Assembly (NCBI GenBank): GCA_047624725.1
Contig: JBLHQB010000001.1
Coordinates: 1 to 53,749, forward strand
Length of the DNA: 53,749 nt
Direction of reading: 5' to 3'
DNA from: Patiriisocius sp.
GTDB lineage: Bacteria; Patescibacteriota; Minisyncoccia; Phycocordibacterales; UBA918
Shown here: piece by piece, positions 1,756 through 48,570 of the stretch
How the letters are laid out: each line of letters opens with the position of its first letter
How positions within the stretch are numbered: the stretch's first letter is position 1
Position numbers and translations under genes: made by a program
The notes under the pieces: generated by a model
Told to the model about the DNA's origin: nothing
The model's input: only the letters and a program-made list of their open reading frames with translations
Database searches by the model: none

Positions 1756-1786
1756 CGTCTTTGCGAGCCATTGTGCGGCAATCCAG
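1756..1786 (+). repeat. Family A 31-nt dispersed unit, solo copy
   Basis: CGTCTTTGCGAGccattgtgcgGCAATCCAG, located between two convergent terminators. Confidence 0.8.
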
Positions 1787-4269: not shown

Positions 4270-5634
4270 ATGCAAAAGATAGCTACTTTTTTCCTCATCC
4301 TCATTATTATACTGCCGTATGTTACATACGCAGAAACTGAAGCGGAACGACGTTCACGTCTTGAGGCACAGCTACAGGTAGTAGAAAAACAAATTATCCA
4401 GCAGCGTGTACTTGTGCAAGGGAAGCAACAAGAACGGCAATCGCTCGAGCGTGATCTTGCGATTATTGATGCGGAGGTGAACCAGGCCCAGTTAGGTATT
4501 CAAGCGCGCTCAGTAGCTATCGAACAACTCTCTACACAGATCGAAGATAAGGAAGAGGTGATCATTATTCTCAATGACCGCCTGGACAAGCAGCGGAAGT
4601 CGTTAGCTGAGCTTATCCGCAAGACACAGTCGGTGGATGATTTCTCATTGGCGGAGGTAATGCTCAGTAACGACAACTTCTCAGAGTTCTTCACCGACGT
4701 AGAAAGTTTCCGTGCAGTAAAGCAGTCGCTGAACGATTCGCTGAGTGCGCTTACACAAATTAAGACTGATGCGTATTCACAAAAGCTTTCACTTGAAGAG
4801 AAACAGTTGACCGAAGCTGAGATGAAGCAAGCACAAGAGATTGAGAAGAAAAATATCGAGGCACAGGAATCACAGAAGGAACAAATCCTTGCTACCACAA
4901 AAGGACAAGAGAAGGCGTACCAGCAGTTGTTAGCATCCCAGCAGAAAAATGCTGCGCAACTTAAGGCTCAACTCTTTGATCTACTTGGAGGTGGGGGAGC
5001 TATTCCATTTCCTCAAGCAGTTGCCTATGCACAAGTAGCTGAGAGTCTCACGGGCACACCAGCTGCGTTGATCCTTGCTATCCTTGAGCAGGAGTCAGCG
5101 TATGGAGGGAACATCGGTGGGTGTACTATGGGTGATGTGTCACTCGGTCGCGACATCATGCACCCAGATCGAGACAAACCACCGTTCTTAGTAATCGCAG
5201 CAGAGCTTGGGTTCGATCCAGAGACACAACAAGTATCGTGTCCACTACGCCGAAGTGACGGAACCCGAATCGGATGGGGAGGTGCGATGGGGCCTTCACA
5301 GTTTATCCCAAGCACGTGGGCAATCTACGGAGGATTCAAAAAAGATTCGTTCGGAACATATTCATACATACAAAGTCAGGATGCAATCCGTTCACTACTA
5401 AAGAAGTCAGTACCCGGTAGCCCGTTTAGTAACCAGGACGCATTCTTAGCAACAGGACTACTTCTGCGAGACAATGGAGCAACAGGAAGTTACAGCAGTG
5501 ACCGAACCGCAGCGCTGCGATACTACGCAGGATGGGGAGGAGCGAATAACCCAGAGAACTCGTTTTATGGGGATGGGGTTATGAAGCGGAAACAACGCCT
5601 CGACGGAGACATAGCAACCTTAACGGGACAATAG
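4270..5634 (+). CDS. Secreted coiled-coil protein with C-terminal lytic murein transglycosylase-like (SLT_2/MltB-type) domain
   Basis: Signal/TM MQKIATFFLILIIILPYVTYA, about 230 aa of Q/E/K-rich coiled coil, then ILAILEQESAYGGNIGGC and WGGAMGPSQFIPSTW motifs. Start set at ATG 4270 (the ORF-track start 4231 is TTG). Confidence 0.6.
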   Translation: MQKIATFFLILIIILPYVTYAETEAERRSRLEAQLQVVEKQIIQQRVLVQGKQQERQSLERDLAIIDAEVNQAQLGIQARSVAIEQLSTQIEDKEEVIIILNDRLDKQRKSLAELIRKTQSVDDFSLAEVMLSNDNFSEFFTDVESFRAVKQSLNDSLSALTQIKTDAYSQKLSLEEKQLTEAEMKQAQEIEKKNIEAQESQKEQILATTKGQEKAYQQLLASQQKNAAQLKAQLFDLLGGGGAIPFPQAVAYAQVAESLTGTPAALILAILEQESAYGGNIGGCTMGDVSLGRDIMHPDRDKPPFLVIAAELGFDPETQQVSCPLRRSDGTRIGWGGAMGPSQFIPSTWAIYGGFKKDSFGTYSYIQSQDAIRSLLKKSVPGSPFSNQDAFLATGLLLRDNGATGSYSSDRTAALRYYAGWGGANNPENSFYGDGVMKRKQRLDGDIATLTGQ

Positions 5635-5663: not shown

Positions 5664-5727
5664 GAAGAGTAACGACTATTCTGAATTTATGTCCCAATTT
5701 TTTCTCCCCTCGAGAAAATTGCTGGAC
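5664..5727 (+). repeat. Family B element copy 1 (5' flank motif + bulged hairpin)
   Basis: ..GAGTAACGACTATTCTGAATTTAT GTCC-CAATTTTTTCTC-ccctc-GAGAAAATTG-ct-GGAC (hairpin 5691-5727). Confidence 0.8.
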
Positions 5728-5843: not shown

Positions 5844-6015
5844 CGTCTTTACGTGAGAAAGTCTGGGAGACTTTCGCAAGAGGTTTAGGAAAATAAAGAG
5901 CGTAGTGATTATATTTTCTTTATGCGGAGCAACGCGATAGTGCCTGGTATTTTCTTCAGAAAATGGTGACAACCTGAACAGCTTCTGTAAGAAGGCTTCA
6001 GCCAAAGCAATCCAG
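5844..6015 (+). repeat. Family A unit split by the long form of structured cargo X (172 nt)
   Basis: CGTCTTTaCG...GCAATCCAG ends. Three internal hairpins at 5857-5875, 5949-5964 and 5982-5994. Close homolog at 48408-48570. Confidence 0.8.
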
Positions 6016-9011: not shown

Positions 9012-9089
9012 GTGAGAAGTGACTCAATGTCACCTTGCAAGAGGTTGCCAGCTCATACGAGCGACAACCTGAACAGCTTCTGTAAGAAG
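9012..9089 (+). repeat. Structured cargo X, copy without family A ends
   Basis: GTGAGAA..GTGAC-tcaat-GTCAC..TTGCAAGAGGTT..GCTC-atac-GAGC GACAACCTGAACAG CTTCT-gta-AGAAG. Confidence 0.75.
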
Positions 9090-12166: not shown

Positions 12167-12583
12167 ATGACACCTGCACTTATCTATCTCGCAGGAAGCG
12201 TAGCGATCCTTATGATTCTCATAGGGATCTTTCGCGTTGAGGATGCACGTGAAGGAAAGCTGGTTCTCTTAAGTAAGTCACGACTCTTCTTTAGTAAGGT
12301 GGTGAGTTATGTGGGAAGGAAGCTCTATTCGCTTGATACCTACATCGGTAAAGGGTTTGCACGTATTATGTTGCATTATGCTGTACATGGCCTCCTGGAG
12401 CGCGTTTTGAACGTACTGAAGGGTACACAAGGTCGCGTGGAGAGTTTATTACATCGTAATAAGCAGGTAGTTAAGGAGATCAGTAAAGATAAGAAGCGCA
12501 ATCACTTAGACGAGATTGCAGACCACCAGCAGGAGACTGCATTGAGTGAAGCGCAGAAGAAGAAGATGCGATCGCATGAGTAG
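12167..12583 (+). CDS. Hypothetical membrane protein (138 aa)
   Basis: N-terminal TM (ALIYLAGSVAILMILIGIF) and a basic C-terminus, followed by a strong terminator. Confidence 0.5.
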   Translation: MTPALIYLAGSVAILMILIGIFRVEDAREGKLVLLSKSRLFFSKVVSYVGRKLYSLDTYIGKGFARIMLHYAVHGLLERVLNVLKGTQGRVESLLHRNKQVVKEISKDKKRNHLDEIADHQQETALSEAQKKKMRSHE

Positions 12584-12614
12584 AAAAAAACCAATACTAA
12601 CGTATTGGTTTTTT
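12584..12614 (+). terminator. Rho-independent terminator
   Basis: AAAAAAACCAATAC-taac-GTATTGGTTTTTT. Confidence 0.85.
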
Positions 12615-12620
12615 GTTTAA

Positions 12621-12649
12621 TGGATTGCTTTGTGAACTCGCAAAGACGG
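12621..12649 (-). repeat. Family A unit, inverted orientation
   Basis: TGGATTGCtttgtgaaCTCGCAAAGACGG. Confidence 0.75.
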
Positions 12650-12680
12650 TGGGTAGTTATGTTGACTGGTGTCGAGGAGG

Positions 12681-12753: not shown

Positions 12754-12867
12754 CGTCTTTGCGAGCCTCAGCGTGAGAAGTGACTTAATGTCAGTTCGCA
12801 AGAGGTTTCCTGATATTTCTTTAGAAATATTGAAAACCTGAACAGTTTCTGTAAGAAAGCAATCTAG
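12754..12867 (+). repeat. Family A unit split by the short form of cargo X (114 nt)
   Basis: CGTCTTTGCGAGCCTCAGCG..hairpins 12777-12797, 12812-12831, 12846-12858..GCAATCtAG. Confidence 0.8.
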
Positions 12868-21486: not shown

Positions 21487-21616
21487 GACAGATCTTGAGC
21501 GAATTACTGCGTTACTACTCAGTAAATTGAATCTCATCGTACTACCCGTACGCCTCGGTTCAATTTCTTCGCGCGCCTTGCACTTCATCTCAAGCTCAAG
21601 TCTTAAATCATACCTC

Positions 21617-21645
21617 CGTCTTTGCGAGGTATCGAAGCAACCCAG
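21617..21645 (+). repeat. Family A unit
   Basis: CGTCTTTGCGAGgtatcgaaGCAAcCCAG. Confidence 0.7.
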
Positions 21646-21653
21646 CGTCACAT

Positions 21654-21685
21654 AAAAACCAGATGAGTATCCTCATCTGGTTTTT
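21654..21685 (+). terminator. Rho-independent terminator (gyrB)
   Basis: AAAAACCAGATGAG-tatc-CTCATCTGGTTTTT. Confidence 0.85.
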
Positions 21686-21709
21686 ATATTTATTTCAGCA
21701 TCCCATCAT

Positions 21710-22079
21710 CGTCTTTGCGAGCGGAGCAAAGCAATCCAGGAATATAATATACAGATGGAAAAACAACCATGTGTCTATATTATGACAAACAAAAGAAACG
21801 GTACTTTGTATGCCGGTGTTACGAGTAATATTCATAAACGAGTCTCTGAACATGTTCAGGGTCAAGTAGAAGGTTTTACCAAGAGGTATCATCTCCACAG
21901 ATTGGTATATGTGGAAGCATGCGAAAATATGTTCCAAGCGATAGAACGCGAGAAGCAGATTAAAGCTGGATCCAGGAAGAAGAAATTAGAGCTTATTGAG
22001 AAAGAGAATCCATCGTGGAATGATTTATCTGAGATGATCTGACCCCTGGATTGCTTCGACTGAGGTCTCGCAAAGACGG
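21710..22079 (+). mobile_element. GIY-YIG nuclease gene bracketed by inverted family A units (370-bp putative mobile or domesticated element)
   Basis: Left unit 21710-21740 ends 14 nt before the ATG. The inverted right unit 22045-22079 starts 2 nt after the stop. Confidence 0.6.
21755..22042 (+). CDS. GIY-YIG (URI-domain) nuclease family protein, 95 aa
   Basis: PCVYIMTNKRNGTLYAGVTSNIHKRVSEH...EREKQIKAGSRKKK shows the GIY...YxG, Arg and Glu core pattern of small stand-alone GIY-YIG proteins. Confidence 0.82.
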   Translation: MEKQPCVYIMTNKRNGTLYAGVTSNIHKRVSEHVQGQVEGFTKRYHLHRLVYVEACENMFQAIEREKQIKAGSRKKKLELIEKENPSWNDLSEMI

Positions 22080-22126
22080 TGGGTAGTAAGCCATTCGTCT
22101 TTGCGAGCCTCAGCGCGGCAATCCAG
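22045..22126. repeat. Inverted pair of family A units (R then F) forming an 82-nt hairpin
   Basis: CCTGGATTGCttcgaCTGAGGtCTCGCAAAGACGG-16 nt-CGTCTTTGCGAGCCTCAGcgcgGCAATCCAG. Confidence 0.8.
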
Positions 22127-22136
22127 CAAGCGTAAG

Positions 22137-22167
22137 AAAACCAGATACGTGTTACGTATCTGGTTTT
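22137..22167 (-). terminator. Rho-independent terminator of the small-ORF pair
   Basis: AAAACCAGATACG-tgtt-ACGTATCTGGTTTT. The stop codon of ORF 22152-22481 lies in the loop. Confidence 0.7.
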
Positions 22168-22481
22168 GGTGTTTCTTCTGCTTTCTTTCCAAGAAGCTCT
22201 TCCATCATTTCGTCTGCGAATGCATTAGCTTCTGCGGAAGGCACCTTAGTTCTTGTGTAGGGCTGAAAAGGTCCTCTCTGCAGTTGTGTAACAATATCTT
22301 TTATGGGTGCAGCCATATCCTGTTCCTTCTTTTCGGGCTTCTCCTGATGGCCCTCAAGTGAGTAGTTGTCAAGAATCTTCCTTGCAAGTGCAAAATTTTT
22401 CTTGCCTCCAGGCTTAGGTTTTGTCTGTCTAAGCCTTACTGACCTCAACATTGATCTGATATTACGTAGTGTCGCTGCCAT
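22152..22481 (-). CDS. Hypothetical basic protein (109 aa)
   Basis: ORF with GGAGA RBS. The start is 2 nt after the stop of the upstream 56-aa ORF. No family recognised. Confidence 0.5.
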   Translation of the reverse strand: MAATLRNIRSMLRSVRLRQTKPKPGGKKNFALARKILDNYSLEGHQEKPEKKEQDMAAPIKDIVTQLQRGPFQPYTRTKVPSAEANAFADEMMEELLGKKAEETPKPDT

Positions 22482-31619: not shown

Positions 31620-31698
31620 CGTCTTTGCGAACGTCAGTGAAGCAATCCAGAGTTGGGTAACAAGGCTCTGGATCGCCGCATTAACACTCGCGAAGACA
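31620..31698. repeat. Gene-less inverted pair of family A units (F then R), 79-nt hairpin in the thrS 5' UTR
   Basis: CGTCTTTGCGAacgtcagtgaaGCAATCCAGAG-13 nt-CTCTGGATcGCcgcattaacaCTCGCGAAGAC. Confidence 0.8.
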
Positions 31699-35932: not shown

Positions 35933-36003
35933 CCTGGATTGCCACGCTCGCGCTCGCAAAGACGGAGTGTTGTCTTTGCGAGACCCTGGTCGAAGCAATC
36001 CAG
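35933..36003. repeat. Inverted pair of family A units (R then F) between divergent dnaE and rnhB
   Basis: CCTGGATTGCcacgctcgcgCTCGCAAAGACGG-agtgt-tGTCTTTGCGAGaccctggtcgaaGCAATCCAG. Confidence 0.8.
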
Positions 36004-48407: not shown

Positions 48408-48570
48408 CGTCTTTGCGTGAGAAAGTGTTTGCACACTTTCGCAAGTGGTTTAGGAAAATAAAGAACGTAGTGATTATATTTTCTTTATGCGGAGCAACGC
48501 GATAGTGCCTGCTATGTAAATAGCGACAACCTGAACAGCTTCTGTAAGAAGCGGAAGCGTGGCAATCCAG
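48408..48570 (+). repeat. Family A unit split by the long form of cargo X (163 nt)
   Basis: CGTCTTTGCG..hairpins 48421-48440, 48511-48524, 48539-48551..GCAATCCAG. The 57-nt internal segment 48451-48507 is 56/57 identical to 5886-5942. Confidence 0.8.

Follow-up and report, generated by a model that had tools for sequence, protein, structure and literature searches.

Inverted copies of a dispersed intergenic repeat on either side of a small GIY-YIG nuclease gene: a probable Ssn/SRM locus with a variant repeat unit

What connects a small nuclease gene with a short repeat that is scattered through the intergenic DNA around it? The question is raised by a 53,749-nucleotide (nt) stretch that makes up contig JBLHQB010000001.1 in full, which we call the window, from a metagenome-assembled genome (MAG). 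Here an ssn-like gene on the + strand (21755..22042), identified from the open reading frame (ORF) map, Pfam and alignment, encodes a single-domain GIY-YIG nuclease of 95 amino acids (aa). A sequence-only reading of this DNA had placed the gene between inverted copies of one repeat unit, and the bracket is confirmed: the left unit (21710..21740, +) ends 14 nt before the ssn ATG, and the right unit (22045..22079, -), inverted, starts 2 nt past the stop codon. Judged from the gene, the bracket and the anatomy of the repeat, the locus is very probably a member of the published Ssn system, whose repeats are termed Ssn-related motifs (SRM), with a variant repeat.

With one or two mismatches allowed, 13 units are recovered in the window, against 0 expected by chance, nine on the + strand and four on the - strand, at every place and in every orientation that the sequence-only reading had assigned to them. 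The exact form CGTCTTTGCGAG-N4-20-GCAATCCAG alone occurs five times versus 0.00 expected from 100 shuffles. The claim that the units lie only between genes holds as well: 13/13 avoid every ORF of 80 aa or more that starts with ATG, in a window map of which at least 75% is coding. The chance of such an all-intergenic placement is P ~1e-8 when the 13 sites are taken as independent and ~6e-5 when the seven intergenic regions are counted once each. Besides the bracket, the locus holds, downstream of gyrB, an SRM-type unit whose right end is degenerate (CGTCTTTGCGAG..GCAACCCAG; 21617..21645, +) and another (22096..22126, +) that stands head-to-head with the right bracket. Dispersed solo units are found at 1756..1786 (+) and at 12620..12648 (-), the latter followed by a terminator-like hairpin. 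A convergent pair is formed by the units at 31620..31650 (+, left partner) and 31668..31698 (-, right partner), and a head-to-head pair upstream of rnhB by those at 35933..35964 (-) and 35971..36003 (+). The other three, on the + strand, had been read as split copies. All three are real, but they are not loosely split: each centre is interrupted by an element of 86-142 nt, termed X and described below, which follows the 5' arm in the units at 5844..6015 and 48408..48570 and stands just before the 3' arm in the unit at 12754..12867.

The unit head reads CGTC in 11 units and TGTC in two, and the tail reads CCAG, CCAT or CTAG. The arms, TTTGC/GCAAT, form 4 base pairs (bp) plus an outermost T.T, with 8-15 nt between them; in the 31668-31698 unit they read TTCGC/GCGAT, a variation that preserves pairing.

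The nuclease belongs to a large family of proteins of its own size. Pfam PF01541 (GIY-YIG) matches residues 5-77 of the window protein (E=3.5e-16), with no second domain, and tblastn finds one copy of the gene in the window. More than 5,480 homologues of ~95 aa were found, at identities of 55-82% and with lengths of 86-135 aa (mostly 95-100), under taxon labels that include Patescibacteria, Alpha-, Beta- and Gammaproteobacteria, Nitrospinae and others. An alignment of 32 homologues shows no variation at Y8, Y19, R29, H33, E66 and N85, among other residues. The sole relative of the window protein in the PDB is 1ZG2, a small UPF0213/GIY-YIG protein, and an NCBIfam scan of it gave merely sub-threshold matches to unrelated GIY-YIG-containing models.

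Such proteins have been characterized. Chenal et al. 2025 (Nat Commun 16:2388, PMC11893778) describe Ssn, single-domain GIY-YIG proteins of ~94 aa (CDD cd10448) that bind their repeat solely as single-stranded DNA (ssDNA) and cut a few nt upstream (5') of it, whereas double-stranded DNA (dsDNA), RNA and the reverse strand are not acted on; ssDNA-specific cleavage beside the repeat was shown for four homologues. The Neisseria repeat, NTS, is CGTCATTCCCGCGMAVGCGGGAATCYRG, an oriented extension of dRS3, and the broader SRM class includes dRS3 and the CGTC-tagged repetitive extragenic palindromic (REP) sequences. SRM occur near 71% of ssnA homologues and on both sides in 42%, and Ssn is encoded by 81% of the genomes with more than 200 SRMs (PMC11893778). 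The repeats had been catalogued before as CGTC-tagged REPs, including dRS3/NIME and Rickettsia RPE-4/-6, with the remark that they 'apparently lack a dedicated transposase' (Di Nocera et al. 2013, PMC3733652). The supposition that the nuclease and its repeat form an uncharacterized system is thus not upheld: the GIY-YIG/repeat association is already known, and the present locus is an ordinary new example of it, not a discovery. Literature searches found no later papers following up Ssn, and nothing for GIY-YIG combined with 'repetitive extragenic palindromic'.

Several features tie the window locus to this system. Compared by residue numbers, the spacing of Y8, Y19 and E66 (11 and 47 residues) is that of Y6, Y17 and E64 in published SsnA, and the substitutions Y6A, Y17A and E64A abolish cleavage by the N. 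meningitidis enzyme (PMC11893778). Cutting depends most on the three nt before the palindrome and binding on the C just after it (PMC11893778); GTC before the palindrome and C after it are present in 13/13 window units. The exact published NTS consensus flanks five homologues (L014, L042, L065, L067 and L070), with which the window protein shares 55-59% identity over the full length.

Other observations weigh against the assignment. The published SRM string, HGTCWYN(0-2)YYVSBRHN(0-5)WNVSBRGN(0-2)RNCYNB, has 0 matches in the window. The units fold, as RNA and as DNA, no better than shuffles (z -1.8 to +1.5), so that hairpin-dependent recognition appears less obvious for them than for canonical NTS, and the biological role of Ssn is established for Neisseria only (PMC11893778). 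The string, built from 29 genomes, is a search heuristic, and we therefore regard the window unit as a variant and not as a non-member. A separate candidate, the unit as a stable hairpin or terminator, was dropped, with RNA and DNA fold z-scores near 0. Rfam, run on the whole window at the gathering threshold and at E<=10, returned a tRNA and noise alone and covered neither the unit nor X. Specific to this window are the weak-hairpin, long-loop variant of the unit (CGTCTTTGCGAG..GCAATCCAG) and the discreteness of the cassette that it forms with ssn; beyond these, the value of the finding is mainly confirmatory, the Ssn/SRM association having been rediscovered from sequence alone.

Does the bracket extend beyond the window? 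We surveyed 80 genome loci from many phyla that encode relatives of the nuclease, with flanks of up to 10 kilobases (kb) on each side. The generic detector (GTC, a 5-nt arm, its complement and CY) is too permissive genome-wide, giving 32 matches in the window versus 27 in resampled sequence. It was therefore applied to the short flanks of the nuclease gene only, where a background in resampled sequence of ~1 match per 4 kb per strand corresponds to ~3% per flank. A + unit lies within 140 nt upstream of the nuclease gene at 57/79 loci (72%), an inverted unit within 170 nt downstream at 61/76 loci (80%), and units bracket the gene on both sides at 46/75 loci (61%). The flanking that the sequence-only reading had expected of homologues is therefore found, none of the outcomes that it had named as refuting was observed, and the inverted-unit bracket is a general property of the nuclease family.

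The typical upstream unit has the form (C/T)GTC-arm-centre-arm'-CCAG on the + strand, with its reverse complement downstream. Arm sequences co-vary with lineage (ATTGC, ATTCC, ATGCC, ACCCC and others), the lineage forms being ATTGC..GCAAT, ATTCCCGCGAAGGCGGGAAT, ATTCCGGC..GCCGGAAT, ATGCCGGA..TCCGGCAT and ACCCCCGC..GCGGGGGT. At many loci the matching arm type is also found elsewhere, with up to 31 more copies per 20 kb. The commonest upstream arm type is the long-centre ATTGC/TTTGC class, with 24 of the 57 detected units. The survey independently reproduces the published flanking frequencies. Scored by a structural rule and not by the published string, these loci also suggest that the published counts may underestimate the Ssn-repeat association, because the long-centre class is the commonest upstream and the window units escape that string. 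The long-loop ATTGCGAG/TTTGCGAG..GCAATCC units appear to represent a large class of cognate repeats that this string misses. It is therefore probable that Ssn-repeat pairs have been counted too low and that ssDNA tools have more specificities to draw on.

How far does the conserved block reach? We aligned the window with the contigs that carry the two closest homologues of the nuclease (identity 82% and 79%). Nucleotide similarity starts at the upstream unit and breaks off precisely where the downstream inverted unit has its outer end (..CTCGCAAAGACG), and the flanks beyond the units are unrelated among the three contigs. The neighbours are gyrB and a small ORF in the window, genes for an MFS transporter and RNase J in the L085 contig, and PrgI/TraC-like genes and a hypothetical gene in the L081 contig. 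Because similarity stops at the units in all three, unit-ssn-unit (~370 nt) behaves, as far as these alignments go, as a discrete transferable cassette among unrelated neighbours. Its discreteness supports a selfish-element origin of the kind that the authors of PMC11893778 had proposed, without showing that Ssn moves DNA, and the exact boundaries in three unrelated neighbourhoods give a concrete start for asking whether the cassette is mobile. The close relatives, which have PrgI/TraC-like genes nearby, stem from marine metagenomes; among named genomes, the nearest Ssn relative whose unit is the same T variant belongs to Candidatus Campbellbacteria (L001). In viral contigs the T-variant unit has one match. 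The NCBI label of the MAG, 'Patiriisocius sp.', may be a binning error.

Along the locus, the order is the end of the gyrB ORF (21486), unit, hairpin, unit, ssn, inverted unit, unit, hairpin and a convergent ORF (22152-22481, -). The two terminator-like hairpins, both on the + strand, lie after gyrB (21652..21687) and between the cassette and the convergent ORF (22137..22167). A perfect TATAAT (21743-21748) sits between the left unit and ssn, with 6 nt to the ATG, and ssn may therefore be expressed from a nearly leaderless mRNA. A module composed of a unit and an AAAACCA..TGGTTTT terminator-like hairpin occurs three times (21605-21700, 22084-22180 and, on the - strand, 12575-12660). Two of these modules lie on either side of the ssn cassette; they form a diverged direct repeat whose hairpin interiors differ in a compensatory manner.

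What would the nuclease do with these units? By homology with the characterized enzymes, the window Ssn would bind its cognate unit only as ssDNA, reading the strand that carries CGTC..arm..loop..arm..CCAG, and would cut a few nt 5' of the CGTC tag, leaving dsDNA, RNA and the complementary strand uncut. Its recognition sites would be the gene-flanking units together with the solo and paired intergenic units. In Neisseria, Ssn limits recombination of incoming transforming DNA, and the N. meningitidis enzyme reduces transformation by NTS-bearing DNA (PMC11893778). By analogy, we infer that the likeliest role of the window enzyme would be to cut unit-bearing ssDNA from replication, transformation or conjugation and thereby to modulate recombination at repeat-bearing loci. 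The evolutionary origin of the arrangement may be a selfish, horizontally transferable cassette.

One could go further and take unit-ssn-unit for an autonomous mobile element, a REP/RAYT-like or insertion sequence (IS)-like system in which Ssn excises and spreads the cassette and the non-autonomous solo units. The cut-competent + strand units at the locus would then be those at 21617, 21710 and 22096, and + strand cuts 5' of 21710 and 22096 would free a ~385-nt ssDNA that holds the whole cassette between complementary ends. The architecture is indeed that of an IS or of a REP-flanked RAYT gene, the ~370-nt cassette has unrelated genes as neighbours in each of three related contigs, where similarity stops at the outer unit ends, and identities of 55-67% between homologues of very distant phyla suggest horizontal transfer. 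However, GIY-YIG enzymes hydrolyse DNA without a covalent intermediate, and the host would have to supply ligation or recombination for excision and integration. In contrast to the Y1 HUH transposases (RAYTs), GIY-YIG hydrolases are not known to carry out strand transfer. The window holds a single copy of the gene, and neither a target-site duplication nor a pair of empty and filled sites was found. Mobility was raised for this family before: the discussion in PMC11893778 notes that NTS-ssnA-NTS resembles an IS and likens it to IS200/IS605 and to REP/BIME-associated transposases. CGTC REPs had been noted as being without a dedicated transposase (PMC3733652). Yet the one tested role is the restriction of transforming ssDNA, not transposition, and 19% of SRM-rich genomes have no Ssn, so that the repeats can persist without the enzyme (PMC11893778). 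The REP/RAYT-like description in the sequence-only reading therefore stands for the architecture, which is general, while the analogy with RAYTs and IS stays a proposal that others had made already. Its further idea, that the protein mobilises or maintains the repeats, finds no support in a published activity that consists of site-specific ssDNA cleavage beside the repeat. Mobilisation of the repeat by Ssn remains unproven, and we think it unlikely that the cassette is such an element.

The units might instead serve the host as regulatory or structural elements (terminator-associated or mRNA-stability hairpins, or protein sites), the nuclease bracket being incidental or regulatory. Every unit is intergenic, those at 21617, 22096, 12648 and 1756 lie just upstream of terminator-like hairpins at gene ends, and RNA-level roles have been proposed for REPs (PMC3733652). 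We hold this to be most improbable in view of a bracket that recurs at 46 of 75 loci across phyla with a unit type that tracks the nuclease lineage, the weak folding of the units, and the published finding that Ssn binds and cleaves the repeat directly and sequence-specifically as ssDNA and leaves RNA unaffected (PMC11893778). We favour a cassette whose Ssn would cut unit-bearing ssDNA, much as in Neisseria.

The three interrupted units raise a question of their own: what has entered them? X is a conserved, structured internal sequence common to all three, with a fourth copy outside any unit. X1 (5853-5994, 142 nt), X3 (12773-12858, 86 nt) and X4 (48417-48551, 135 nt) lie inside the units at 5844..6015, 12754..12867 and 48408..48570, whereas X2 (9012..9089) stands alone and is not part of the Ssn system; all four are on the + strand. 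Two insertions fall directly after the 5' arm and one directly before the 3' arm, and these differing points indicate independent insertions of X into the unit centre. The layout of X, over 77-142 nt, is GTGA - P1 (8 bp) - GCAAG - P2 - GAACAG - P3 (5 bp, GUA loop). P2 consists of AGGTTG..CAACCT around a variable hairpin, and two long copies carry an extra ~57-nt insert within it.

X is widespread in metagenomes, where a scan with GCAAGNGGTT-N10-40-AACCTGAACAG found at least 120 contigs with it (loci L088-L207). Pairs were counted over 96 distinct copies, gapless and anchored on conserved sequence with no structural alignment. In these counts 94% of cells are paired in P1, 90% at the base of P2 and 90% in P3, versus 20-64% in a control with the partners slid by 1-2 nt. 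P1 shows three to six pair types at pairs 4-8 and P3 four or five at pairs 1-3, while pair 6 of the P2 base is G-C in 72 copies and A-T in 16. Covariation in stems P1 and P3 is strong. Many G.T pairs occur on the given strand, and X is therefore strand-specific and RNA-like. MAFFT and RNAalifold on 89 copies gave the P2 base only, from an alignment that mixes two P1 registers.

X also sits in partial copies of genes. For at least 16 of 117 copies, the stretch of 13-31 nt that abuts X on its 5' side recurs 40-140 nt downstream, where it runs into an intact gene, and the sequence directly past P3 copies what follows the downstream repeat in that gene; the layout is A-X-B'-spacer-A-B. The intact genes behind X are those for tRNA-Asn, tRNA-Thr, other tRNAs, 5S rRNA, the 5' end of 23S rRNA and codons 3-9 of rnhB. 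Partial upstream duplicates with X are seen in L105 (1560-1810), L164 (555-805), L142 (12830-13090, -), L152, L179, L120, L137, L097 and L202. L097 carries a second, different insertion after another copy of the tRNA 5' fragment, and such arrays therefore look like interrupted decoy copies ahead of the intact gene. In L172 and L202 a longer insertion (..AAAATAGCAGCCTTATTGAGAAATCG..), which may be a group I intron, splits the anticodon loop of the downstream, intact-looking tRNA-Asn copies; ARAGORN accordingly calls no tRNA at these copies. Elsewhere X occupies the P1 loop of another X-like element or stands in tandem copies (L139, -, ~4505-4640; L153/L157; L091, 7056-7236). The short modules CTTATGAGCGTAGTGAAYTAGT, CGCGAGTACTTAG and GCGACTATTCTGAATTT recur beside X, and ACTATTCTGAAT, a piece of GCGACTATTCTGAATTT, is found in the window at 5675 and 9097. 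The nesting, the tandem copies and the recurring modules suggest mosaic repeat regions. Upstream of rnhB (RNase HII), where the window has its head-to-head unit pair (35933-36003), X insertions occur in the unrelated metagenome contigs L092 and L152, and this region may be a recurrent landing site.

No recurring ORF family was found beside X in the X-bearing contigs. No Ssn homologue occurs in the 653 kb of these contigs, and SRM units occur in few of them; X is therefore independent of Ssn. X has two matches in viral contigs. Rfam gave no match for X, either in the window scan or in a focused scan of one X locus, and literature searches with X sequence strings and with concept terms returned nothing relevant. 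X looks like a non-autonomous, structured, insertion-prone element that prefers hairpin centres and partial copies of highly expressed RNA genes. It is the more novel item of this window; if confirmed as new, it would matter more than the Ssn finding, and it deserves follow-up of its own. Jointly, it is conceivable, though we offer it as a tentative view that we do not expect to hold, that the cassette is an autonomous mobile element using an ssDNA intermediate cut by the GIY-YIG enzyme, through an undescribed transposition or homing chemistry, with the solo units as its non-autonomous progeny, and, independently, that the X copies form a hitherto undescribed family of small, structured and mobile RNA/DNA elements entering hairpin loops and the partial 5' ends of tRNA, rRNA and protein genes.

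How does the locus compare with known systems? GIY-YIG homing endonucleases of the I-TevI type share the catalytic domain and are likewise selfish, horizontally spreading genes, but they have a separate DNA-binding domain, cut dsDNA and reside in introns or free-standing beside one target, whereas Ssn has no extra domain and many dispersed ssDNA targets. IS200/IS605 elements likewise have subterminal end hairpins that are recognised as ssDNA and likewise act in a strand-specific manner, but their enzyme is TnpA (HUH), in some elements together with TnpB, and their insertion site lies 3' of a fixed tetra- or pentanucleotide; none of this is seen here. REP/REPIN-RAYT systems (Nunvar 2010; Bertels and Rainey 2011) resemble the locus in their single-copy nuclease-type gene with inverted flanking copies of an abundant intergenic palindrome, and a folded single strand would be the recognised form in both. 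However, RAYT belongs to the Y1 HUH transposases, works through a covalent intermediate and can rejoin DNA, and its repeats have a GTAG head, whereas the window gene is GIY-YIG and Ssn is a hydrolase that is not known to transpose.

The closer likenesses are to the repeats themselves and to SsnA. CGTC-tagged REPs (PMC3733652) share the CGTC/TGTC head, the CCA tail, the intergenic location, the frequent head-to-head dimers and the sites downstream of genes. Their catalogued stems of 8-9 bp open with A-T pairs and enclose loops of 4-5 nt, whereas the window units open with T.T, have short arms and hold 8-15 nt between them. With respect to SsnA/NTS (Chenal et al. 2025), the window unit, CGTCTTTGCGAG-N8-12-GCAATCCAG, has T for A at position 5, arms of 4-5 bp, a long centre and no significant hairpin stability, and is missed by the published string; its host is an uncultured marine MAG, known here by its sequence only. 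Common to both are a single-domain GIY-YIG protein of ~94-95 aa with equal Tyr/Tyr/Glu spacing, a gene flanked 5' and 3' by opposed copies of a ~30-nt directional repeat, and a repeat with a CGTC head, a palindromic arm pair and a C(C)AG tail that is dispersed through intergenic DNA.

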